Origin: a bacterium
GTDB taxonomy: Bacteria > Patescibacteriota > Minisyncoccia > Phycocordibacterales > UBA9973
Direction of reading: 5' to 3'
DNA length: 64,000 nt
Assembly: GCA_037130655.1 (NCBI GenBank)
Contig: JBAXSP010000002.1
Location: 77,125 to 141,124, forward strand
Shown piece by piece: positions 418 to 45,207 of this stretch; positions within the stretch are counted from its first letter, which is position 1; each line of letters begins with the position of its first letter. The notes beneath the pieces are model-generated. The model did no database searches and was not told where the DNA came from. It was given only the letters and a program-made list of their open reading frames with translations. A program made the position numbers and the translations under genes.

Positions 418-813
418 TTATTTGCCGGGAATAAATTTCATTGAAATAGAATTCACACAGTGGCGGATGTTTTTGTCAGTCAGCCCTTCGCCAGTGAAGA
501 GGTGCCCCAAATGCCCACCACACTTCGCGCAAGTGATCTCTGTACGAAATCCGTCAGTATCAATACTCTTTTTTATCGCCCCAGGAATCTCATCATCAAA
601 ACTCGGCCAACCACAAGTCGTTTCAAATTTATAACTTGAATCATAGAGTGGTGCATTGCATTGTCGGCAGACATAGACACCAGTTTCTTTGGTGTTTACA
701 TATTCGCCAGTAAAAGGTAACTCTGTACCCTTATCAAGTATTATTCTTTCTTCTTCTTTTGTTAATTTGTTTTTTATTATATTACTCATATTTTTCTGGA
801 TACTTTTTGGCAT
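418..813 (-). CDS. msrB: peptide-methionine (R)-S-oxide reductase MsrB
   Basis: SelR motifs CGWPSF and [17 protein letters not shown], with four Zn-binding Cys. Confidence 0.9.
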
Positions 814-816
814 TCT

Positions 817-915
817 GTTCCTTACAGGAACTGTACACCTTTTGGATATATTTCTTCGTAAAACTCGAAATCTATCTCAAAAGGTCTTGCGCTTGTGTTG
901 CGACACAAGCTCACC
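817..915 (+). repeat. family-1 structured repeat, copy A (SL1 with TTACA loop, conserved imperfect hairpin core, variable 3' hairpin)
   Basis: SL1 gttccTTACAggaac, core tgtacaccttttggatatatttcttcg...ctcgaaatctatctcaaaagg, 3' hairpin gcttgtgttgcgacacaagc. Homologous to the copies at 24546, 35914, 37535, 41971, 45067 and 49212. Confidence 0.8.
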
Positions 916-985
916 TTTGTCGATAATGACATGCTTTTCTACTTCAGTTAGTTCGTTTAGTTGCATAATGTTGCTCTCGTACAAA

Positions 986-14636: not shown

Positions 14637-14771
14637 AAAACGTTATTTAAACATGAAACCAAAGAATCGATTTACTTCGCTTTTTCTTTCTTCGGTTTCT
14701 TTGTTTCTTTTCTGCGACTGTTGTTGCCTTTTGCCATATGGAGTGATTATAACACAAATAATCGCAATTAT

Positions 14772-20635: not shown

Positions 20636-20668
20636 AAAGAGCGAAACCCGAAGGGTTTCGCTCTTTTG
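20636..20668. terminator. bidirectional terminator (CCGAAGG-loop type)
   Basis: aaaagagcgaaacccgaagggtttcgctctttt. Confidence 0.7.
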
Positions 20669-20676
20669 AATATTAT

Positions 20677-21237
20677 TTACTCCCGTAATCGTTCACCTTT
20701 CGGATTACCAAAACGATAATCGATAGTTCCAACAGTTGCTTTATCAACATTTACTATACCTAACAAATGATCATATTCATGCTGAAGTAGTCGTGCCCAA
20801 AAATCATTATATTCTTCAGTAATAGACTTACCTTCTTCATTAACATACGAAAGTGTAATTACTTTTGGTCTACGAACATCACACCAAACATGACCAGAGC
20901 TTAGACAATTTTCTTTATATAAGTTTGTTTCTTCAGATGTAGAAATTATTTTAGGATTAATATATATTTTAGAAACGTCATCTTTGTACGTAACAAAAAC
21001 AGCCGATCCAATACCTATCTGAGGAGCAGCAAGTCCGACACCAAGACCAGTAACATCTTTATACGCAAGCAGTGTCTGTAGAAGCTGTTTACCTATCTTT
21101 ATACCTTCTTCAAAAGAAACTTCTTCCGCTTTTGTTCGTAATACAGGATTACCAATATAAGTAAGTTCTGGAATTTTTTCAATAATAGTATTTGATCCGT
21201 CATTCAAATCAGTAAGTAGTTGGTTATATTTGTTCAT
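20677..21237 (-). CDS. def: peptide deformylase
   Basis: GLAAPQIG, EGCLS-equivalent (ENCLS) and HEYDHLLG metal-binding motifs. Confidence 0.9.
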   Translation of the reverse strand: MNKYNQLLTDLNDGSNTIIEKIPELTYIGNPVLRTKAEEVSFEEGIKIGKQLLQTLLAYKDVTGLGVGLAAPQIGIGSAVFVTYKDDVSKIYINPKIISTSEETNLYKENCLSSGHVWCDVRRPKVITLSYVNEEGKSITEEYNDFWARLLQHEYDHLLGIVNVDKATVGTIDYRFGNPKGERLRE

Positions 21238-21255
21238 ATAGTCCTTAGATTTAAC

Positions 21256-21837
21256 TTAGATCGCCTTTCCGTCACCCAAACCCATTTGAGCTTTGTAGTG
21301 TTCAATAACTTCTGGATGTTTACCCTCTTTGCATTCTGCTACAAATTTTTCACTACTTGCACCATCAGGAAAAGACATGTACGAAAGTGCTGATTCGCAC
21401 ACTACATTGATATTGAGTTTACCGTTTACTGCAGGGGTAACAGAAATAACGTCGATAACTTTCGTAACCGTAAAAATTCCTTTCATATTGTATTTCGCCC
21501 ATTGATCAGTACTGAGTGCTTCTTTGATAACAACGAAACCTTCTGCTGTGATATGTGCACCACTTTGGAATTGATTCATTGCATCAGCTGATTCACCGAA
21601 GTTTACAGCGTAGTAATCACCATCATCAGTCTTCATTCCAAAAGCACATTCCATTGTTTGTGGACCAGTGGTGTCCATATGTGGCAAACAAGTAAATGAA
21701 CCTGAGAGTGTTACATTTTGCGGTGTTGCATCAAGTGGCGCCGGTGCGTTTTGATGAAAACGAAGTGCGAAATACACTCCCACACAAGTAGCGATAACGA
21801 TCAAAACTGCAACAATATTTTTATATGTAGTATTCAT
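21256..21837 (-). CDS. hypothetical secreted protein
   Basis: N-terminal signal anchor. Confidence 0.45.
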   Translation of the reverse strand: MNTTYKNIVAVLIVIATCVGVYFALRFHQNAPAPLDATPQNVTLSGSFTCLPHMDTTGPQTMECAFGMKTDDGDYYAVNFGESADAMNQFQSGAHITAEGFVVIKEALSTDQWAKYNMKGIFTVTKVIDVISVTPAVNGKLNINVVCESALSYMSFPDGASSEKFVAECKEGKHPEVIEHYKAQMGLGDGKAI

Positions 21838-21905
21838 ACAATAGAGTATATCATCAATTGATGCTCAATAAAAAATACCCTTTCGGGTATTTTTTATTGT
21901 ATCTA

Positions 21906-22298
21906 TTATTCCGGTTGCTTATATTGTGAAAGTCCAAGAATATTCCCTTCAGAATCTTTGAACCATGCAAGGAAACCGTATTCCCCATTTTCTCCGAGTG
22001 CTGTTTTGCCACGAACGATTGTTCCGCCATTTACTTCAATTTTTTGAAGCGTCGCATCGATATCTTCTGTTTGCATATAAAACATCGGATGAGGCATTTC
22101 AGGATCTCTTTTACTCGAACCACCATTGATAAATCCTGGTTCAGTCGGTTGCATTTTTTCATTCACTGGGCCAGTCTGCCAACTTGTATATTTCATTGCC
22201 TCCCATTCAAATGGTTTCCAATCAAATACTTCTTGATAAAATTTGTTCGCCCGTTCCTTGTCATCCCAAGGAAATTCAAAATGGATTACTTTGTTCAT
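21906..22298 (-). CDS. VOC (glyoxalase/bleomycin-resistance) family protein
   Basis: ~130-aa size and pattern (HFEFP ... GGT ... GNILGL). Confidence 0.6.
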   Translation of the reverse strand: MNKVIHFEFPWDDKERANKFYQEVFDWKPFEWEAMKYTSWQTGPVNEKMQPTEPGFINGGSSKRDPEMPHPMFYMQTEDIDATLQKIEVNGGTIVRGKTALGENGEYGFLAWFKDSEGNILGLSQYKQPE

Positions 22299-22387
22299 AT
22301 AGAGTGATTATAACATCAAATGAATTTGAGAAGGAATATTTTAATTTAAATGACAATTAAGGAATTCTTTTAGATTAAATGCTTAAT

Positions 22388-24481
22388 TTACCACTTTAGA
22401 GCAATTTCTTTAAAAGCATTTAAAACCAATATTTTCCCTTCTTTGTTAAAATATTTATGTTTTATTGGACCAGTAGGTTTTCCGGTTGATCTTGTACGAG
22501 CGTGAGATAATTCACTTTCAAGTCTTTTATCATGAATACTTTTTGCCATTGCAAAAATACAAGGATACTTCCTCGCAAAGGGACTTCTATTACTACTTAT
22601 TGAACCTCCAATATTTCCAAGAATATGATTACCTATTGTAGGATCATGAAGAAACAGCGAGTTAAGCACTAAATCATTAAATACATCCATATAATTTACC
22701 CACGCGGTGATATTTATTGCTGCCTCCTTTCTACAATTAAAGGCTAGTGTGCAGGCTTGTTTGTAATTAGATCCAAAGATTGTTTTCCAGTCTATGGTTG
22801 TAATACTTTGCCCTAACCATTTATTGAAATGTATTTCAATAGCACACCAACTCGCTCCAGCTGGCATTCTACTTATTAAGCCTGTTTCTTTTAGAATTGC
22901 AGCTGCTCTTAAGTTTATTTTTTTCTTTTGCCCAGTTAGAGCAATATTACGTTTTACCATTATGACTGCGGCGGAACAAGCAGTATCATTTGAATCATCT
23001 CTAATTTTTTCATTTAGTAATTGTGATAAAAAATTTGGAGCAATATTACCATTATCAAGAGACTGGACTAGAGAGGATCTTGCGTACCACTCTTTTGCCC
23101 CAAGGGCGAACCGCATCTGTTTTTCTGTATTTATCAAATTATTCCTTACAACCGGACGACCTATAGCAACATGTAAAACAATGTCATCACCAAGAACATT
23201 TGGGCGCCACTCTTTCTTTAATAACTCTTGAACTCGTGCGACTTGTCCCGATCTAACCCTTCCATCTAAGGTTTCAAAAAGAGCTGCTGTAATAGCAGAG
23301 TAAACAGGCTTAGTTATAATTTCATTAATTATTAAATTAACAACACTATCTGGTAAAAAATCATATCTCTGAAAATATTTAAGTGTCGTTTCAAAATTAG
23401 ATGGATTTTCCTTAAATAAACGCCATACACGACTGTTTATTTTAGAAGACGGTATTGCATGAGCTAAAAGATACTTAAAACGTGTTTGATTACTTATTTT
23501 ATAACCTTTAGTTAAAGCAATAATTCTTTTTTGTAATTTATCCTGATTAACAAACTTCCACTTAATGGCTGATTCAGTTGGATTACTTACTGATTTTAAT
23601 TCCTCTTCAATATTTTTTACCTCATGAATTTCTATCTTACTACTCTGAGGAAATAGACCGATATTTTTACTAAGCCTATCAAATTGTATAAGCATTAGTC
23701 GTAATTCTTTCTCCGAAGATGCAAATAGTCTTATATCATCAACATAGCGCATGTAACGCATTTGAGGAGGATTACCATATTTAACATCGAAATACTTTAA
23801 AACAACTTCTGACAGTAAGCCTGAAGCAAGTGGCCCCTGAGGTATTCCGTGATTATGATAAATTTGTGATGACTGATTTCCTGTCCACTTACTTAGACAA
23901 GAAATTAATATATCGATAAATTCATCATCGCATTTTATTTCCTTTAAAAAATGACGAAGAACCTTATGATCAATACTGTCATAACATGCGGTTAGATCAA
24001 AACTTGCGCTATATGTTAGACCATTATTAAATGCATCTCTAGCGGCATCATTAAATTTCTTATATCCATCTGACCATTTTCTATAAAACCAAACACTGCT
24101 TTTACCAGCATAGAGGTTACCGAAATTCTTTAAATAATAATTTGATTTTATTCCAGGAATAACAACAAGGTGTTCTGCGATTATATTTACCATAGCCTGA
24201 TAAACGATTTGATCCTCAACTGTTAGTAGTGTATAACCACGAAGAATACCTGAAGATTTTGGAATAAAAATTTTACATCCATGACTAGGTTCATAAGTCT
24301 TAGATTTAATTTGGTTTGATAAATCATCTAATATATAATCTTCTATTATTGAATATTCAGAATAAAGTTCTCGAAAATAATCTTTATACCTTCTATCCGG
24401 ATTACTTTTTATCCATCTCCACGCTCTTTTAAGGTTGTCTTTATCGAAAACTTCGTTCATTGTTGGTATTTTTCTTGGCAT
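22388..24481 (-). CDS. reverse transcriptase, UG/Abi-like single-gene type with a large alpha-helical C-terminal domain
   Basis: RT motifs 1 (IPKSSGILRGYTL), 3 (SFDLTACYDSIDH), 4 (GIPQGPLASGLLSEV), 5 (YMRYVDDIRLFA) and 6/7 (GLFPQSSKIEI), followed by ~380 aa of non-RT sequence. The ORF-track start at 24592 reads through repeat B. The Met at 24481 (MPRKIPTMNEVF) is the more likely start. Confidence 0.8.
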   Translation of the reverse strand: MPRKIPTMNEVFDKDNLKRAWRWIKSNPDRRYKDYFRELYSEYSIIEDYILDDLSNQIKSKTYEPSHGCKIFIPKSSGILRGYTLLTVEDQIVYQAMVNIIAEHLVVIPGIKSNYYLKNFGNLYAGKSSVWFYRKWSDGYKKFNDAARDAFNNGLTYSASFDLTACYDSIDHKVLRHFLKEIKCDDEFIDILISCLSKWTGNQSSQIYHNHGIPQGPLASGLLSEVVLKYFDVKYGNPPQMRYMRYVDDIRLFASSEKELRLMLIQFDRLSKNIGLFPQSSKIEIHEVKNIEEELKSVSNPTESAIKWKFVNQDKLQKRIIALTKGYKISNQTRFKYLLAHAIPSSKINSRVWRLFKENPSNFETTLKYFQRYDFLPDSVVNLIINEIITKPVYSAITAALFETLDGRVRSGQVARVQELLKKEWRPNVLGDDIVLHVAIGRPVVRNNLINTEKQMRFALGAKEWYARSSLVQSLDNGNIAPNFLSQLLNEKIRDDSNDTACSAAVIMVKRNIALTGQKKKINLRAAAILKETGLISRMPAGASWCAIEIHFNKWLGQSITTIDWKTIFGSNYKQACTLAFNCRKEAAINITAWVNYMDVFNDLVLNSLFLHDPTIGNHILGNIGGSISSNRSPFARKYPCIFAMAKSIHDKRLESELSHARTRSTGKPTGPIKHKYFNKEGKILVLNAFKEIALKW

Positions 24482-24545
24482 AGATTTTTTATATCTTAAG
24501 TAAAACATATAATATACTTTAGATATCAATCTGACAAATAAGAAA

Positions 24546-24672
24546 TCTCTCCTTACAAAGGGAGGTATACCTTTTGGATATATTTTTCGCAAAGCTCAAA
24601 TCTACCTCAAAAGCTTTTCGAATCCGTCCTCCTGTTTTGTTGCAACAAAACAGTTGCGGAAGTTCCCCAGCA
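24546..24672 (+). repeat. family-1 structured repeat, copy B (antisense to the RT and tRNA-Gln, ends in a tRNA-Gln 3'-end mimic)
   Basis: SL1 ctccTTACAaagggag, core tataccttttggatatatttttcgc...ctcaaatctacctcaaaag, then ttcgaatccgtcctc, hairpin ctgttttgttgcaacaaaacag, and agttccccagca (identical to the tRNA-Gln acceptor 3' strand). Confidence 0.75.
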
Positions 24673-24720
24673 AATGAAAAAATACCCAAATTGGGTATTT
24701 TTTCATTTGCTGGGGAACTA
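24661..24720. repeat. 60-nt perfect inverted repeat enclosing the 3' end of tRNA-Gln
   Basis: agttccccagcaaatgaaaaaataccc / gggtattttttcatttgctggggaact. No U-tract follows on either strand. Confidence 0.85.
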
Positions 24721-24780
24721 GGATTCGAACCTAGATAGTCGGAACCAAAATCCGAAGTCCTACCATTAGACGATTCCCCA
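24710..24780 (-). tRNA. tRNA-Gln (UUG)
   Basis: Hand-folded cloverleaf: acceptor TGGGGAA/TTCCCCA, anticodon stem TCGGA/TCCGA with loop TTTTGGT, T-arm CTAGG-TTCGAAT-CCTAG, discriminator G. CCA is not encoded. Confidence 0.75.
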
Positions 24781-24829
24781 ATATTATTGATTTGTATAGA
24801 CAATATACCAAATTTTCAAGAAAAATCAA

Positions 24830-25105
24830 TTGATTGTTATAATAAAGCCAATGCCCTATCATACCTATATTCTTGAGTGTGCCGACAAGACACTGTATGT
24901 CGGTTCAACCAACAAATTGGAAAAGCGCCTGCATGAACACAACAATCTCAAAAGTGGTGCACATTACACCAAAATCCGCCGACCGGTGGTACTCAAATAT
25001 TCCGAAGAATGTGAATCTTATGCCGAGGCCCGTAAGAAAGAAGGTTTCTGGAAGAAAATGTCTCGACAAGAAAAACTCGAATTAATTAACCAAAACAATA
25101 TATAA
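24830..25105 (+). CDS. GIY-YIG nuclease family protein
   Basis: YILECADKTLYVGSTNKLEKRLHEHN. Confidence 0.8.
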   Translation: MIVIIKPMPYHTYILECADKTLYVGSTNKLEKRLHEHNNLKSGAHYTKIRRPVVLKYSEECESYAEARKKEGFWKKMSRQEKLELINQNNI

Positions 25106-33625: not shown

Positions 33626-35926
33626 ATGTCAAAGAAACTACTAATCGTTGAGTCACCTTCAAAAGCCAAAACTATCGAGAAATATCTCGATGGCGCATAT
33701 ACCGTGCGTGCTTCTGTCGGACACATTCGCGATCTTCCAAAATCAAACAAAAAAGCTATCGATATTCCCGGTGGCTTTATTCCGTCATACGAAATCTCAA
33801 AAGGCAAAGAAAAAGTCGTTGACGAACTGCAATCACTCGGAGAAAAAGCAACAGAAATCTTACTCGCAACTGACCCGGACCGCGAAGGAGAAGCTATTTC
33901 TTGGCACCTCCAAGAATTACTCAAGGCTGACAAAAAAATCAAAGCACCAATCAAACGTGTGACTTTCCACGAAATCACCAAAGAAGCTGTTATCGAAGCA
34001 CTGAAACATCCGCGTGATATTGATGACAACTTGGTCAAAGCTCAAGAAGCTCGTCGCGTGCTCGACCGTTTGGTTGGTTATGATTTGTCAGGTTTGATCT
34101 GGAAAAAAGTTCGTTATGGACTTTCTGCTGGACGTGTACAATCCCCTGCGCTTCGTATTCTTTGTGAACGCGAACGCGAAATCAAAGCATTCATTCCAGA
34201 AACCTATTGGGTATTGTCAGGACTATTTGAAACAGCCAAGAAAGTGCAAATTAAACTAGCTTGTGAAGAAGAGCCTCGTGACCAAACAGCAGTACAAAAA
34301 ATACTCGAGCTTGGAAATGCGAATCAATGGTTTGTCACTGAACTAAAGACGAGTGAACAAAAGCGTTCACCTCGCGCACCGTTTACTACTTCGACATTAC
34401 AACAAACAGCTTCAACTCGTTTGGCTTTTTCTCCATCTCGCACAATGCAAATTGCACAGAAATTGTACGAGGCTGGACATATCACCTATATGCGTACTGA
34501 CTCGACAACGCTTTCAGAAACATCTATCGCGAGTATCAAAAGTGTTATCGAAAAACAATACGGAAAAGAAATGGTAGAACTCCGTACGTACAAAACAAAA
34601 TCAAAAAATGCTCAAGAAGCTCACGAAGCGATTCGTCCAACTCATCCCGAAAAAGCATCTGCAGGAACGACTGATGAACAAAAAGCATTGTACAAATTGA
34701 TTTGGGAACGAACCGTCTCATCACAAATGATTGATGCACAACTTTTGAAAACCAAAATTTCTGCAAACATCAAACAAGGTGGTATTCCAAATTTCTCTGC
34801 CAATGGTTCACGTTTGATCAAAGCTGGATGGCTAGCTTGTGAAAGTGCTGCTCGTGGTGAAGATGTAGAACTCCCTGAAGTAAAAGAGGGTGAAGAATTG
34901 GGCGTCATCGAACTTGGTTCACTAGAAAAACAAACAGAACCACCAAACAGATATTCTGAAGCTGGTCTCGTCAAAGAACTCGAAGCTCGTGGCATTGGAC
35001 GTCCTTCAACCTATGCGTCTATTATTCGTACCATCGAAGAACGTGGGTACGTGGAGAAAATCAATCGTTCCTTGAAGCCAACAGATACTGGTGAAGTAGT
35101 TTCTTCGTTCCTTGAAGAAAACTTCATGGAATATATCGGAGATGATTTCACTGCAGAAATGGAAAACGAGCTCGATGAAATTGCCGATGGAACACGTGGC
35201 TATACAAAAACATTGAAAGACTTTTATGGTCCGTTCACCAAACACATCAAAGAAAAAGATAAAATGGATAAGCTGACGACACTCGGTGTTGCTGATCCAA
35301 AATACAAATGTCCAAAATGTGGCAAAGACATGGTCATCAAATTGGGACGTGGAGGCAAATTCCTCTCTTGTGCAACATATCCAGATTGTGACGGGGCTTT
35401 GACAATCGACGGCGTTGAAATCAAAAAAGATGAACCAATTGCAATCGACCCAGAATCAGGACTTCCAATTTTTGTACTCACTGGACGATTTGGTCCATAT
35501 GTCCAAATTGGTGAAGTGGTCAAAAAGAAAACAGCGAAGAAAAAAGTAGCTAAAAAAACAACGAAAAAGAAAAAAAGTGAAACTGTATCTGACGAAGTGA
35601 TTGAAGAAAAAGCTGAAGAAGTTGTAAGTCCTAGAAATGGACGACGTGCAAGTATTCCAAAAGAAATTGATCCGAGTACTGTCACCGAAGAGATGGCGCT
35701 CAAATATTTGTCACTTCCTCGTGTGCTCGGGCAACACGAAGATGGAGTAGATGTGATTGCCAACGTCGGACGGTTTGGTCCATATGTCGGACACGAACGA
35801 AATTTCCGTTCAATCAAAAAACCACTCGATGTATACACGATCACACTCGACGAAGCACTCCATCTACTGGCACAAGAAAAAAAGCCCCGCGGTTTTCAGA
35901 AAAAGAAGCCGAATGGTGAGAAGTGA
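33626..35926 (+). CDS. topA: DNA topoisomerase I
   Basis: TOPRIM LLIVESPSKAKTIEKYL, active-site region, and C-terminal Zn ribbons (CPKCGKDM...CATYPDC). Confidence 0.9.
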   Translation: MSKKLLIVESPSKAKTIEKYLDGAYTVRASVGHIRDLPKSNKKAIDIPGGFIPSYEISKGKEKVVDELQSLGEKATEILLATDPDREGEAISWHLQELLKADKKIKAPIKRVTFHEITKEAVIEALKHPRDIDDNLVKAQEARRVLDRLVGYDLSGLIWKKVRYGLSAGRVQSPALRILCEREREIKAFIPETYWVLSGLFETAKKVQIKLACEEEPRDQTAVQKILELGNANQWFVTELKTSEQKRSPRAPFTTSTLQQTASTRLAFSPSRTMQIAQKLYEAGHITYMRTDSTTLSETSIASIKSVIEKQYGKEMVELRTYKTKSKNAQEAHEAIRPTHPEKASAGTTDEQKALYKLIWERTVSSQMIDAQLLKTKISANIKQGGIPNFSANGSRLIKAGWLACESAARGEDVELPEVKEGEELGVIELGSLEKQTEPPNRYSEAGLVKELEARGIGRPSTYASIIRTIEERGYVEKINRSLKPTDTGEVVSSFLEENFMEYIGDDFTAEMENELDEIADGTRGYTKTLKDFYGPFTKHIKEKDKMDKLTTLGVADPKYKCPKCGKDMVIKLGRGGKFLSCATYPDCDGALTIDGVEIKKDEPIAIDPESGLPIFVLTGRFGPYVQIGEVVKKKTAKKKVAKKTTKKKKSETVSDEVIEEKAEEVVSPRNGRRASIPKEIDPSTVTEEMALKYLSLPRVLGQHEDGVDVIANVGRFGPYVGHERNFRSIKKPLDVYTITLDEALHLLAQEKKPRGFQKKKPNGEK

Positions 35927-36016
35927 TGGGATCACTTCGCAAGACCTTTTGAGATAGATTTCGAGCCATGCGAAGAAATATATCCAAAAGGTGTACTGAA
36001 ACTGTAAGTTTTTCAG
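35914..36016 (-). repeat. family-1 structured repeat, copy D
   Basis: Minus-strand reading: ctgaaaaacTTACAgtttcag, gtacaccttttggatatatttcttcg...ctcgaaatctatctcaaaaggtcttgcg, then hairpin gaagtgatcccatcacttc. Overlaps the topA stop. Confidence 0.8.
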
Positions 36017-36044
36017 AAGAAAAAGAAAGACTAGTTAAAATATA

Positions 36045-37534: not shown

Positions 37535-37669
37535 TGCCGGAGAGAGCGCAAGTATTTTGTTAGACAAAATACGAGCACGGACTCGAAAAGCTTTTGTGAT
37601 AGATTTCAAGTTATACGAAGAAATATATCCAAAAGGTGTACTGCGCCTGTAAGGCGAGAGTCCTCTCCG
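37535..37669 (-). repeat. family-1 structured repeat, copy E (antisense to tRNA-Leu-CAA, ends in a tRNA-Leu 3'-end mimic)
   Basis: Minus-strand reading: gcgccTTACAggcgc, gtacaccttttggatatatttcttcg...cttgaaatctatcacaaaag, then ttcgagtccgtgctc, hairpin gtattttgtctaacaaaatac, and ctctctccggca (identical to the tRNA-Leu acceptor 3' end). Confidence 0.75.
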
Positions 37670-37731
37670 TTTCTTTAAAAAACCCAACACATAGTGTTGG
37701 GTCTAAAGCAAAAAAAACAGACTGCTTACAT

Positions 37732-40673: not shown

Positions 40674-41348
40674 TTAATTCAACAAAAATCGCAATGTTGA
40701 AACGAGACGAATCTTTTTGTATTCAGGAGATCCTGGGTCTTTGTCAGTGATATCAAATACCCCTTGGTTTCCACGATTGACTCCCCCGACAGTTGTTCCA
40801 GCGTTTTGTGCAAATGAAGTGGCTGTTTCTTTGGCATTCTTGATTGCTTCGGCCAACATTTCTGGCTTCACACTATTTAGATCAGAGAATTCAAAAGAAA
40901 TATAATTTTGATTGAGCACTACTCCTTTCTTCACCAAAAGCAATGTTTCGTTTGAAGCACTTTTTGCCAAATCAACTTTCTTTGTATACACCGCGACTTG
41001 GTTGGTTGAGTTGTATCGGAACGCTGCGTCCTTGTAAGTATCTTGATAGATGTTTACCGGAGCCACATTGATTTCACTTGCTTCAAATCCTTTTTCAGTC
41101 AAGAAACTCTTGATTGCAGTAATATTCTTTTCTGTATCGGCATAGAGTTGATCAATACTATTTGATTTTACCTCAAATGTCAGCGTCCAAATAGCCGTAT
41201 CAGCTTTGACGATTTTTTCTGATAAACCTTTTACTTCAACATACGAACCTTGTTTTGAGAAATCTTTCGAAGCGAAAAATACCGCTCCAGCGAATAATAA
41301 AATTCCTGCACTAATAATCCAAATTGCGTTATTTTTTAGTTTTTCCAT
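40674..41348 (-). CDS. SIMPL/DUF541 periplasmic protein
   Basis: Signal anchor plus a SIMPL-like pattern (WTLTFEVK ... RYNSTNQVAV). Confidence 0.6.
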   Translation of the reverse strand: MEKLKNNAIWIISAGILLFAGAVFFASKDFSKQGSYVEVKGLSEKIVKADTAIWTLTFEVKSNSIDQLYADTEKNITAIKSFLTEKGFEASEINVAPVNIYQDTYKDAAFRYNSTNQVAVYTKKVDLAKSASNETLLLVKKGVVLNQNYISFEFSDLNSVKPEMLAEAIKNAKETATSFAQNAGTTVGGVNRGNQGVFDITDKDPGSPEYKKIRLVSTLRFLLN

Positions 41349-41378
41349 ATGGACTTATTATAGCATTTAAATGCAATG

Positions 41379-41397
41379 TGCGGGCGATGGAGGAATC
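41379..41397. repeat. 19-nt direct repeat of the tRNA-Trp 3' end (second copy at 41575-41593, within the gene)
   Basis: tgcgggcgatggaggaatc is exact at both positions. It covers the T-loop through acceptor plus CA of tRNA-Trp. Confidence 0.85.
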
Positions 41398-41574
41398 TCG
41401 ACTAACAGACTCAGAATCGGTCACGAATATTTTTCACCAGAAAAATTTCTCGACCCCACCTCGCCTATTTTTCTGGTGAAAAATTATGGCTCCGGCTTTC
41501 GATTCCTCTCGCAAGTAAAATTGTTTACTTGCTCATCACCCACAAAAAAAACAGCTTTCGCTGTCTTTTTTTTT
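41398..41574 (+). repeat. family-2 structured repeat, copy 1 (between the tRNA-Trp 3'-end direct repeats)
   Basis: cagaatcggtcacgaatatttttcaccagaaaaat...ctatttttctggtgaaaaattatgg...ctttcgattcctc, hairpin gcaagtaaaattgtttacttgc, then tcatcacccaca (a tRNA-Trp acceptor mimic). ~85% identical to the copy at 48908-49078. Confidence 0.75.
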
Positions 41575-41576
41575 TG

Positions 41577-41950: not shown

Positions 41951-41970
41951 TGTGCGCCGGGTTGGATTCG
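41951..41970. repeat. 20-nt direct repeat of the tRNA-Tyr 3' end (second copy at 42131-42150, within the gene)
   Basis: tgtgcgccgggttggattcg is exact at both positions. Confidence 0.85.
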
Positions 41971-42055
41971 GTTCTTACAGAACCCTGTACCCTAATTGGC
42001 TATTTTATTCGTTGAACTCATAAAATAGCTCAATCAGGCTTCGAATCCTGCTCGC
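41971..42055 (+). repeat. family-1 structured repeat, divergent copy F (between the tRNA-Tyr 3'-end direct repeats)
   Basis: SL1 ggttcTTACAgaacc, ctgtaccc, imperfect hairpin ttggctattttat...ataaaatagctcaa with compensatory changes relative to the consensus, then caggcttcgaatcctgctcgc. Confidence 0.65.
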
Positions 42056-44970: not shown

Positions 44971-45066
44971 AATTATTATAAATTACGTAAATGATGCATT
45001 TCTTCGTTGAAATAACTAAAACCCTCGTCACTGTACAACTCGTACACTTCCTCGTATTTTAATCAT

Positions 45067-45166
45067 TCTCTTACAGAGACGGTACACCTTTTGGATATAT
45101 TTCTTCATTATACTCGAAATATATCTCAAAAGGTCTTGCGATTGTGTTTCAACACAATCTCACACC
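45067..45166 (+). repeat. family-1 structured repeat, copy C
   Basis: tctcTTACAgaga, ggtacaccttttggatatatttcttca...ctcgaaatatatctcaaaaggtcttgcg, hairpin gattgtgtttcaacacaatc, then tcacacc. Confidence 0.8.
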
Positions 45167-45207
45167 TCGAACTGCATTCATTTACCTAATTTCTATTTGT
45201 TATATTT

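Follow-up and report, generated by a model that had tools for sequence, protein, structure and literature searches.

The gene studied here encodes a reverse transcriptase (RT) and lies on the minus strand of a 64,000-nucleotide stretch of bacterial DNA (the window). In the ORF listing, an uninterrupted open reading frame (ORF) of 734 codons extends from a TTG codon at 24592 to a stop codon at 22388-22390 (22388-24592, minus strand), and the gene is real and intact. The TTG is merely the first in-frame start of this maximal ORF. The NCBI model starts at 24508 (706 aa), and the N-termini of homologues align with M38 or M45 of the ORF; judged from this alignment, the true start is probably the ATG at 24481 (697 aa) or the ATG at 24460 (690 aa). 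Upstream of the gene, a tRNA-Gln (ttg) gene occupies 24709-24780 on the minus strand (ARAGORN; Rfam tRNA, 61.9 bits), followed by a small stand-alone GIY-YIG protein of 91 aa, which is encoded on the plus strand at 24830-25105, divergent from the tRNA (Pfam GIY-YIG, E = 8e-17). Downstream of the RT gene lies a VOC/glyoxalase gene (21906-22298, minus strand; Pfam). These flanking genes are as the initial annotation had described them, while its 110-bp spacer between tRNA and RT needs correction. A start at 24481 or 24460 gives a spacer of ∼228-248 nt, and the structured repeat that had been placed in the 5′ region of the RT (repeat B) then lies upstream of the coding region and not within it.

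The domain structure of the protein, numbered here on the 690-aa form, was analyzed with an AlphaFold2 model of the full-length RT (mean pLDDT 87.5), and residue conservation was scored in 63 relatives, down to ∼30% identity. The RT domain, comprising fingers and palm, spans aa 1-300 (23561-24460, minus strand), with the Pfam RVT_1 match covering 23621-24265 (E = 9e-17). The translation contains SFDLTACYDSIDH, GIPQGPLASGLL, the motif A segment SFDLTACYDS and the catalytic motif C, YVDD, at 23735-23746 on the minus strand, in agreement with the reading of this protein as an RT in the initial annotation. D155 and the Y239-V-D241-D242 stretch supply the catalytic residues, and the three aspartates are kept in 62-63 of the 63 relatives. 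A linker loop, ELKSVSNPT (aa 287-295; 23575-23601, minus strand), connects the RT and helical domains. Its Ser292 is found in all 63 relatives, and the residues just past it (295-299) have pLDDT below 50 in the model. The position of the loop is the same as that of the priming loop of AbiA, an analogy that suggests it as a candidate priming site. The loop has no tyrosine, only the invariant Ser292, and priming, if there is any, may differ from that of AbiA.

The second half of the protein is helical, as had been predicted. An alpha-helical repeat (alphaRep) domain covers ∼aa 301-535 (22856-23560, minus strand) in the AlphaFold2 model, with ∼12 consecutive helices at residues 306-525 and pLDDT mostly above 85. 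It is followed by a C-terminal domain with a HEPN fold (∼aa 536-690; 22391-22855, minus strand). Searches of the C-terminal half against Pfam, NCBIfam and PDB sequence profiles returned nothing meaningful, and the HEPN identity comes from fold comparison only. This domain carries the segment HDKRLESELSH (22502-22534, minus strand), which holds a HEPN-type R-x6-H motif, RLESELSH (22502-22525). Arg646 is conserved in 63 of 63 relatives and His653 and His643 each in 62 of 63. The earlier statement that the C-terminal half contains no nuclease motif therefore does not stand, and the modeled HEPN domain may be an RNase.

PADLOC assigns the protein to the UG19 group: the RT_UG19 profile matches it with E = 3.5e-167 and 555.9 bits over profile positions 3-561 of 562, while AbiK matches at only 1e-12. 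UG19 is a Class 1 UG/Abi RT group for which a role in defence was predicted from individual genomic loci (Mestre et al., 2022, Nucleic Acids Res, PMC9226505), and the alphaRep domain is a hallmark of Class 1 (PMC9226505). By profile, the protein is a full-length UG19 member and a Class 1 UG/Abi RT; its fused C-terminal domain makes it the “UG19-large” variant. The UG/Abi character proposed in the initial annotation is borne out, and the “orphan” label is replaced by a family that is already catalogued, in which this gene is ordinary. A homology search found 1282 homologues, with the full-length ones 680-700 aa long at 45-72% identity and the closest relatives from Patescibacteria at 57-72%. 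The distribution of UG19 is patchy and extends over many phyla.

The same searches bear on whether the gene could instead encode the RT of a group II intron, a retron or a diversity-generating retroelement (DGR). The RT core has some of its best structural matches in group II intron RTs, and there are weak matches to NCBIfam group_II_RT_mat (87.8 bits) and retron St85 (32 bits); both fall below their cut-offs of 300 and 235, and the former covers the RT core only. The UG19 profile, by comparison, matches at 556 bits over the full length, and the C-terminal half consists of alphaRep and HEPN domains, with no maturase (X) or endonuclease domain. Rfam gave no group II intron or retron RNA match within the window. 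No template repeat/variable repeat (TR/VR)-like pair was found near the gene: within 22200-24850, repeat pairs do not exceed 21 nt, and the longer window-wide repeat families exclude the RT. We regard this reading as effectively refuted, with a negligible residual probability, in line with the earlier remark that maturase, endonuclease and intron RNA domains are missing here.

We also considered whether the gene sits in a genomic island integrated at tRNA-Gln, as had been suggested. The 18-nt 3′ end of the tRNA occurs a single time in the window, even with 3 mismatches allowed, so that there is no att-type repeat, and no flanking direct repeats were found around the RT. The scanned neighbourhood contains no integrase or further defence gene (PADLOC on the RT and the GIY-YIG protein; Pfam on a few neighbours per side), and base composition at the RT locus lies only slightly below that of its surroundings. 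The GIY-YIG protein has no PADLOC match, does not recur as a neighbour in related RT loci, and nothing links it to the RT. Neither an integration scar at tRNA-Gln nor a defence island is thus supported. The annotated neighbours of the RT are housekeeping genes, and this setting, which is not that of a defence island, counts against the explanation favored below. A phage origin is not indicated, as a UG19 relative occurs in just 2 of 2.9 million viral contigs and the core of the repeat in none. The closest related contig aligns at 21904-22321 and below and not across the RT; its synteny begins at the VOC gene. Since synteny with this contig holds as far as the VOC gene and the RT is missing from the corresponding site, the RT gene appears to be accessory; most likely it acts against phages and reached its Patescibacteria (Minisyncoccia-like) host by horizontal transfer.

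The more unusual item at this locus is the structured element between the tRNA and the RT, which is not in Rfam or in the literature searched. Copy B of this tRNA-flank element, which the initial annotation had correctly located, is matched by a covariance model (R1) at 24534-24622 on the minus strand (71.1 bits, E = 1e-14) and consists of the conserved hairpin P2 and the covarying hairpin P3. Its 5′ part (24623-24660, minus strand) holds GGATTCGAA, which is complementary to the T-loop region of tRNA-Gln, together with hairpin 1 at 24632-24653, the 22-nt palindrome noted previously. Adjoining this is a perfect, terminator-like palindrome with 29-nt arms (inverted repeat I1; 24661-24719, minus strand; 100% complementary), whose stem extends into the 3′ acceptor strand of tRNA-Gln. 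Copy B had been called antisense; in the orientation in which each copy comes after its upstream gene, it lies on the minus strand, the strand of both the tRNA and the RT. Rfam searches of the window at gathering thresholds, of the upstream region and copies C and D in E-value mode, and of 12 metagenome loci gave only tRNAs and chance hairpin matches, and literature searches by phrase and by sequence returned nothing relevant. Hammerhead and other small ribozymes, IS200/IS605-type ends, MITEs and miniature integrative elements were considered, and none seems to fit all features of the element.

The position of copy B raises the possibility that the RT is a Class-2-like DRT that depends on a non-coding RNA (ncRNA), with repeat B (24534-24660) serving as template or scaffold RNA as in DRT2, DRT9 and DRT10. 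The region directly upstream of the RT is on the same strand, is strongly structured (fold z-score -5.4) and covaries across copies, and ncRNAs may exist in additional UG groups (Mestre et al., 2022, PMC9226505). Six of the seven copies of the element in the window, however, lie away from any RT, and it occurs 68 times in metagenomes, after tRNA genes in 63 stretches that contain no UG19 gene or other match to the RT; as these stretches are only 1-14 kb each, they are weak evidence on whole genomes. Conversely, none of 84 other loci (850 kb) contains the element; they include ∼75 UG19 loci, among them the closest Patescibacteria relatives at 57-72% identity. The best promoter-like site for the RT (TTGTCA, 17 nt, TATTAT; 24509-24537, minus strand), a consensus match only at 10/12 positions in a consensus scan, is downstream of repeat B. 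Flanking sequences of UG19 genes argue in the same direction. When 60 upstream and 62 downstream flanks were compared all against all by BLAST, no conserved sequence emerged, and only a few closely related pairs matched. At ∼15 loci with intact genes the predicted gap to the co-oriented upstream gene is at most 7 nt and at ∼23 it is below 40 nt, although these lengths come from ORF predictions made for this analysis, and such predictions tend to make gaps too short. Judged on sequence conservation, this argues against a conserved flanking ncRNA for UG19; an ncRNA with conservation only in structure, or one located within coding sequence, may still exist. The Class 1 UG RTs studied to date are, moreover, template-independent (PMC13174585). 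A role for the adjacent repeat as the ncRNA of this RT is therefore very unlikely.

The second role put forward earlier is that of a trans-acting RT, which would duplicate and disperse the tRNA-associated repeats; the element would then be retro-mobile and SINE-like, possibly primed by tRNA on its tRNA-complementary blocks. The element does contain blocks of complementarity to the 3′ end of the adjacent tRNA, reminiscent of a retroviral primer-binding site, it is present in multiple copies, and here, at a single locus, a tRNA gene and the RT gene flank it. Its copies, on the other hand, lack a poly-A tail, do not form a 5′ truncation series and bear no resemblance to the ends of the RT mRNA, and copying of RNA is not an activity of the Class 1 enzymes studied to date. 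The separation of element and RT in the metagenome stretches and UG19 loci described above applies here as well, and UG19 is spread over many phyla while the genes around the element are tentatively Patescibacteria-like. We give this proposal hardly any credence. The same holds for a coupling of the UG19 RT to the element at this locus alone, with a tRNA or tRNA-like RNA as primer, template or sensor, which is most improbable because the element and the RT family co-occur nowhere else; if true, it would connect tRNA biology with a defence RT of Class 1 and with the HEPN domain that this RT carries. By sequence comparison, repeat B is best described as an independent element, associated with the tRNA-Gln gene and not with the RT.

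The evidence for a defence role comes from the ∼75 related UG19 loci, which are drawn from many phyla. Neighbour clustering found no partner gene family common to all of them. At least 18 lie inside or adjoin restriction-modification (R-M) operons, 13 of them in or next to type I operons, where the UG19 gene is operon-like with the R-M subunits at gaps of 0-16 nt and, at one locus (L028), sits between hsdS and hsdM. Other UG19 genes adjoin MmeI-type (type IIG) enzymes, HsdS, a BsuBI/PstI endonuclease, a HEPN_Swt1-DUF499 protein or a Fic protein. Repeated embedding in R-M operons fits a defence role. It is possible that UG19 serves a cellular function instead, such as nucleic-acid turnover or stress control, and that R-M adjacency reflects shared mobility only. 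Most UG19 loci, including the one in the window, do not adjoin recognizable defence genes, the original defence call came from locus-by-locus inspection and not from statistical enrichment (Mestre et al., 2022, PMC9226505), and our literature search found no experiment on defence or enzymatic activity of UG19. We nevertheless consider this unlikely in view of the operon-like R-M loci, the neighbouring toxins of HEPN or Fic type, the patchy horizontal spread across phyla together with the missing gene at the syntenic site of the closest relative, and the Class 1 relatives AbiA, AbiK, Abi-P2, DRT4 and DRT6-8, which were defensive when tested (PMC9226505; PMC11077055). The DRT-like defence role put forward in the initial annotation is thus strengthened by family assignment, published prediction and the R-M context of relatives.

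We therefore favor, as the probable explanation, a single-gene large UG19 enzyme with an RT-like polymerase, an alphaRep domain and a HEPN domain in the order of AbiA, acting as an accessory anti-phage gene through untemplated synthesis. By analogy with AbiA, AbiK and DRT4, the polymerase would synthesize DNA without a nucleic-acid template. Priming would probably occur on a hydroxyl side chain of the RT itself, so that the product remains covalently attached. The HEPN domain is predicted to pair two subunits and, given its invariant R-x6-H motif, is probably also an RNase effector or an RNA/DNA sensor. Conservation of this motif is not proof of catalysis, since the HEPN domain of AbiA, which has the same motif type, shows no RNase activity in vitro (PMC11077055). 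A phage cue may then alter DNA synthesis and thereby turn the resting protein into an active form that blocks phage multiplication.

UG19 is one of many catalogued RT defence candidates, and its picture becomes firmer here: an AbiA-like fusion of RT, alphaRep and HEPN domains with an invariant motif and no apparent partner gene or RNA. The invariant HEPN motif provides clear mutants, and the architecture raises the idea that DNA synthesis may gate an RNase. The locus also adds UG19 to the Patescibacteria, a group with few known defence systems. The tRNA-flank element, which is widespread and strongly covarying, may be a more valuable lead than the RT.

Compared with UG19 as defined by Mestre et al. 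(PMC9226505), the protein shares the full-length profile match, the order of RT, alphaRep and fused C-terminal domain, and the single-gene organization. It differs in its host, a Patescibacteria/CPR-type genome, and in the C-terminal domain, which here adopts the HEPN fold and carries the invariant R-x6-H motif, whereas the fused domain was described as of unknown kind, with “very distant homology with HEPN” (PMC9226505). UG21, the second-best PADLOC profile (8.7e-51, 171 bits, aligned aa 50-552), is the nearest other UG group and is likewise Class 1, with HEAT-like repeats, but its match ends before the HEPN domain; its defence prediction is inconclusive (PMC9226505). The conserved adjoining ncRNA that marks the Class 2 DRTs (DRT2, DRT3a, DRT9, DRT10) is not seen in UG19 at the sequence level.

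Foldseek matches of the full-length model are RTs, including DRT9, AbiK, Abi-P2, UG15/DRT4, DRT6 and AbiA. DRT4 (UG15) is also a single-gene Class 1 defence RT with RT and alphaRep domains and matches structurally (9l9s and 9vdo, TM ∼0.38-0.39 normalized to the query), but it has no HEPN domain and its sequence similarity is limited to the RT core. According to PMC12783706, DRT4 produces random single-stranded DNA independently of any template, the activity proposed here for UG19. AbiA of Lactococcus lactis (PDB 8oz7) forms a dimer through its HEPN domain and carries out protein-primed untemplated synthesis, with Tyr298 and Tyr303 in a loop at residues 290-310 (Gapinska et al., 2024, PMC11077055). 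These activities are demonstrated for AbiA and attributed to UG19 by analogy. AbiA belongs to a separate sequence family, with no AbiA model among the 25 best PADLOC matches (UG19, 556 bits), and its linker carries the priming tyrosines, whereas that of UG19 has the invariant Ser292 and no conserved tyrosine. The two proteins nonetheless share a layout of RT-like, helical and HEPN domains, a flexible linker between the first two, and a HEPN motif of the R-x6-H type, RNSNPVSH in AbiA and RLESELSH in this RT.

The reverse transcriptase (RT) gene is an open reading frame on the minus strand (22388-24592), which runs uninterrupted for 734 codons from the first in-frame TTG. Its product carries the RT motifs quoted in the initial annotation, SFDLTACYDSIDH, GIPQGPLASGLL and YVDD (23735-23746, minus strand, by translation), and is matched by Pfam RVT_1 (E = 9e-17). 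In the search against UG/DRT/Abi RT profiles that the annotation had recommended, the protein matches the whole of the PADLOC profile RT_UG19 (E = 3.5e-167, 556 bits), with UG21 a distant second (8.7e-51), and it almost certainly belongs to the UG19 family. A group II intron or retron identity was rejected, as the protein scores far under the cut-offs of the NCBIfam RT models for group II introns, retrons, Drt2, Drt3a, Drt4 and Drt5, while the UG19 profile matches over its full length. Mestre et al. (2022; PMC9226505) defined UG19 as a group of Class 1 UG/Abi enzymes, in which alpha-helical repeats are joined to the RT, and predicted a defence role for it by examining loci one at a time. Our literature searches found no later experimental work on the family.

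A protein search with the RT returned 1282 matches, in which the full-length proteins have 680-700 aa and 45-72% identity. The nearest relatives (57-72% identity) come from assemblies of Minisyncoccia and Patescibacteria, which makes it most likely that the window belongs to this group too. Scanning a single genome for each species found 80 loci with relatives, in Acidobacteriota, Planctomycetota, Verrucomicrobiota, Burkholderiales and other Proteobacteria, Nitrospirota, Bacteroidota, Clostridia and Patescibacteria. Orthologues in cultured bacteria include those of Caballeronia choica LMG 22940, Ramlibacter aquaticus LMG 30558, a Polynucleobacter sp. and Clostridium arbusti SL206. Viral contigs seldom carry UG19, with 2 loci in 2.9 million. 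The gene is a further member of a known, computationally described family in an unusual host, a member of the Patescibacteria.

The N-termini of homologues align at M38 or M45 of the open reading frame (ATG at 24481 or 24460), and the NCBI model of the protein has 706 aa and starts at 24508. The best promoter-like match, TTGTCA and TATTAT separated by 17 nt (24537-24509, minus strand), would place the transcription start near 24500. With the start corrected, the structured repeat at this site precedes the coding region, and the spacer between tRNA-Gln and the RT gene is ∼230-250 nt, where a 110-bp spacer with the repeat in the 5′ region of the gene had been described.

We built an AlphaFold2 model of the RT on 42 homologues (mean pLDDT 87.5). 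In the model, an RT core (∼aa 1-300) leads through a short linker of low confidence (aa 295-299) into some 12 helices (aa 306-525) and ends in a helical bundle (aa 540-690), in line with the helical C-terminus expected from the sequence. Foldseek matches to the model in the PDB are all reverse transcriptases, among them the Class 1 enzymes AbiK, Abi-P2, UG15/DRT4, DRT6 and AbiA; the AbiA alignment spans more than 730 columns. Lower-ranked fold matches of the C-terminal domain are Roquin, TT1696, sacsin, Csm6, a HEPN/MNT toxin and LsoA/RnlA. The C-terminal region, 390 residues in all, had been thought to lack a nuclease motif; it contains HDKRLESELSH (22502-22534, minus strand, by translation), which holds an R-x6-H motif within the HEPN-fold domain. 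Among 63 full-length relatives, down to ∼30% identity, R646 is conserved in all, and H653 and H643 in 62 each (690-aa numbering). The polymerase and HEPN motifs are both intact, and the modelled architecture is RT, alphaRep, HEPN. Sequence profile searches alone did not detect the HEPN domain, which agrees with the “very distant” homology described by Mestre et al. (PMC9226505). New here is that the HEPN assignment for UG19 is supported by a predicted fold together with an invariant motif.

The surroundings of the gene are as first described: a tRNA-Gln(ttg) gene on the same strand (24709-24780), a GIY-YIG protein of 91 aa on the opposite, plus strand (24830-25105), a VOC/glyoxalase gene (21906-22298) and a 22-nt palindrome (24632-24653) were all confirmed. 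That the gene sits in an island at tRNA-Gln is unsupported, since the tRNA 3′ end has no second occurrence anywhere in the window, no direct repeats or TR/VR-like pair were found flanking the RT gene, its G+C content is just slightly below that of its surroundings, and the annotated genes around it have housekeeping roles, with a peptide deformylase, an epimerase, TspO and AhpC to one side and a histidine phosphatase to the other. When PADLOC was run on the RT and GIY-YIG proteins, no defence profile matched the latter, and the few neighbours scanned with Pfam on each side likewise gave no defence gene. The RT gene looks accessory. In L089, a contig from a close relative with a 95% identical VOC protein and ∼87% identical DNA, collinearity with the window holds from 22321 downwards and is wholly gone above this position, where the RT begins; upstream of the VOC gene, L089 has GrpB and DAO genes in place of the RT and tRNA-Gln.

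Relative to L089, the closest related contig (3092-3176), the window (20648-22321) holds an extra segment of ∼1.25 kb, with a peptide deformylase gene (20677-21237) and a gene for a 193-aa protein with no assigned function (21256-21837). A short repeated motif of family D4, TGTTATAATCACTCYATATG on the coding strand, occurs at 22289-22315, 14728-14754 and 41339-41365, each time directly ahead of the start codon of a minus-strand gene, one of the three being the VOC gene; its resemblance to an extended -10 box suggests that these genes have very short leaders or none.

The relatives' loci bear on function. When ORFs were called in ∼75 related, non-redundant loci and the genes beside the RT were clustered, no neighbour family proved common to most loci, and UG19 is organised as a single gene. 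The sole recurrent neighbours are Pfam-confirmed subunits of type I restriction-modification systems, found in 13 loci. Loci with the RT gene embedded in type I operons include L024, L028, L031, L037, L039, L041, L046, L053, L070 and L078. The usual order is hsdR-hsdM-hsdS-RT, with the RT 0-16 nt after hsdS, while L028 has hsdR-hsdS-RT-hsdM. Other defence-type genes directly beside the RT encode MmeI-type enzymes (L042, L074), another HsdS (L070), a HEPN_Swt1-DUF499 protein (L056), a Fic protein (L043) and a BsuBI/PstI endonuclease (L027). A position inside restriction-modification operons is characteristic of defence genes and supports the predicted role of UG19; the RT probably acts in defence. 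Of the two roles proposed in the initial annotation, that of a DRT-like defence gene stands, on the UG19 profile and this operon context. In L001, a Minisyncoccia relative with a 69% identical RT, a serine recombinase (Resolvase and Recombinase domains) and an AAA_25 protein (1-2481) lie ∼3.5 kb from the RT, which hints that the gene there is in or beside a mobile region.

An adjacent structured RNA had also been considered for the RT. Class 2 enzymes use cis-encoded ncRNAs, whereas DNA synthesis by the Class 1 enzymes examined to date involves no nucleic-acid template (PMC13174585, preprint). By our ORF calling, in which gaps tend to come out too small, a co-oriented upstream gene lies at most 7 nt away in ∼15 loci with an intact RT and less than 40 nt away in ∼23, and several loci are similarly tight on the downstream side. 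When 60 upstream and 62 downstream flanks were compared all-against-all by BLAST, just a few closely related pairs matched. Unlike the Class 2 systems DRT2, DRT9 and DRT10, which have a conserved ncRNA beside the gene, UG19 has flanks without conserved sequence, and such an RNA is unlikely given these flanks and the tight gaps. The candidate in the window, the structured repeat next to tRNA-Gln (family-1 copy B, 24534-24660), is absent from the other UG19 loci and is not supported as an RNA of the RT.

Family-1 is a widespread structured element of ∼110-150 nt with seven copies in the window. Repeat searches and alignments gave six of them, namely copy B (minus strand) and those at 803-925 (minus), 35915-36026 (plus), 37545-37671 (plus), 45052-45175 (minus) and 49208-49335 (plus), and a covariance model, R1, gave the seventh (41956-42045, minus). 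Every copy has the orientation of its upstream gene, which for four is a tRNA gene (Gln, Leu-CAA, Leu-TAA, Tyr); copy B, reported as antisense to the RT, lies on the same strand as both tRNA-Gln and the RT. The 21-nt core, AAATATATCCAAAAGGTRTAC, has 68 exact matches in 63 metagenome stretches (L093-L155; 32-51% G+C), 46 of them within ∼330 nt downstream of a co-oriented tRNA, with ten isotypes represented, and is absent from viral contigs. That the RT propagates these repeats, the second role proposed for it, is not supported from either side: no UG19 relative is encoded on the 63 stretches, which are 1-14 kb long, and a search with model R1 of 84 other loci (850 kb, including all UG19 loci) gave a single match, L092, which is a second assembly of the same sequence as the window. 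Because the element tracks tRNAs and is missing from the other UG19 loci, tRNA-Gln explains the position of copy B.

Parts of the element match the tRNA that it follows, as seen in 25 distinct copies adjacent to tRNAs. Ahead of the conserved hairpin, on its 5′ side, a block is the reverse complement of the tRNA T-loop and T-stem (mean longest exact match 9.4 nt to the cognate versus 5.2 nt to non-cognate tRNAs), and the block 3′ of the element repeats the tRNA 3′ end from the T-loop onwards, up to 22 nt (mean 14 versus 4.7 nt). Both blocks are often preceded by a further stretch that copies the acceptor 5′ strand. In the structure 97% of cells pair, and hairpin P3 shows covariation in all five pairs. 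Searches of Rfam 15 did not return the element, our literature searches found no paper describing it, and no integrase lies near the copies, whose neighbours are housekeeping genes that look Patescibacteria-like. Family-1 may be an RNA that mimics tRNA, or it may have arisen by hairpin-type integration; it merits its own study, while interest in the RT itself is modest.

A second, related family follows tRNA-Trp and tRNA-Cys (41380-41575, minus; 48909-49087, plus), its two copies 89% alike over 61 nt. It shares with family-1 a GGAnnCGAAAG block and a terminal CTG...CTGTTAG...GAGATTCCTC hairpin and differs in its central hairpin; of the window's eight tRNA genes, six are followed by one or the other element. 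Terminator-like perfect palindromes follow tRNA-Gln (24661-24719, 29-nt arms) and tRNA-Leu(TAA) (49161-49212, 26-nt arms), and their stems run into the tRNA 3′ acceptor strand, so that the acceptor 5′ strand copy comes after the terminator. A similar arrangement was seen after 37503.

A mechanism for UG19 can be drawn by analogy with AbiA, AbiK, Abi-P2 and DRT4, and we regard its details as tentative, somewhat short of an even chance. The enzyme would make DNA without a template, probably with a side chain of the protein itself as primer, and a phage-derived cue would switch its activity. The HEPN domain may mediate dimerisation and, given its invariant R-x6-H motif, is probably also an RNase effector or nucleic-acid sensor. 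Lactococcal AbiA has the same order of RT, alphaRep and HEPN domains, and its HEPN motif, RNSNPVSH, is also R-x6-H (PMC11077055). The AbiA domain shows no RNase activity in vitro despite this motif (PMC11077055), so catalysis by the UG19 domain is putative only. The two enzymes differ at a possible priming loop. AbiA has priming tyrosines, Tyr298 and Tyr303, in a loop that positionally matches the linker between the RT and helical domains of UG19 (PMC11077055). The UG19 linker, with the motif ELKS(I/V)SNP (23575-23601, minus strand; aa 287-295), has no conserved tyrosine but does contain S292, invariant in all 63 relatives and just ahead of the low-confidence segment; by analogy with the AbiA loop, the linker is at most a candidate priming site.
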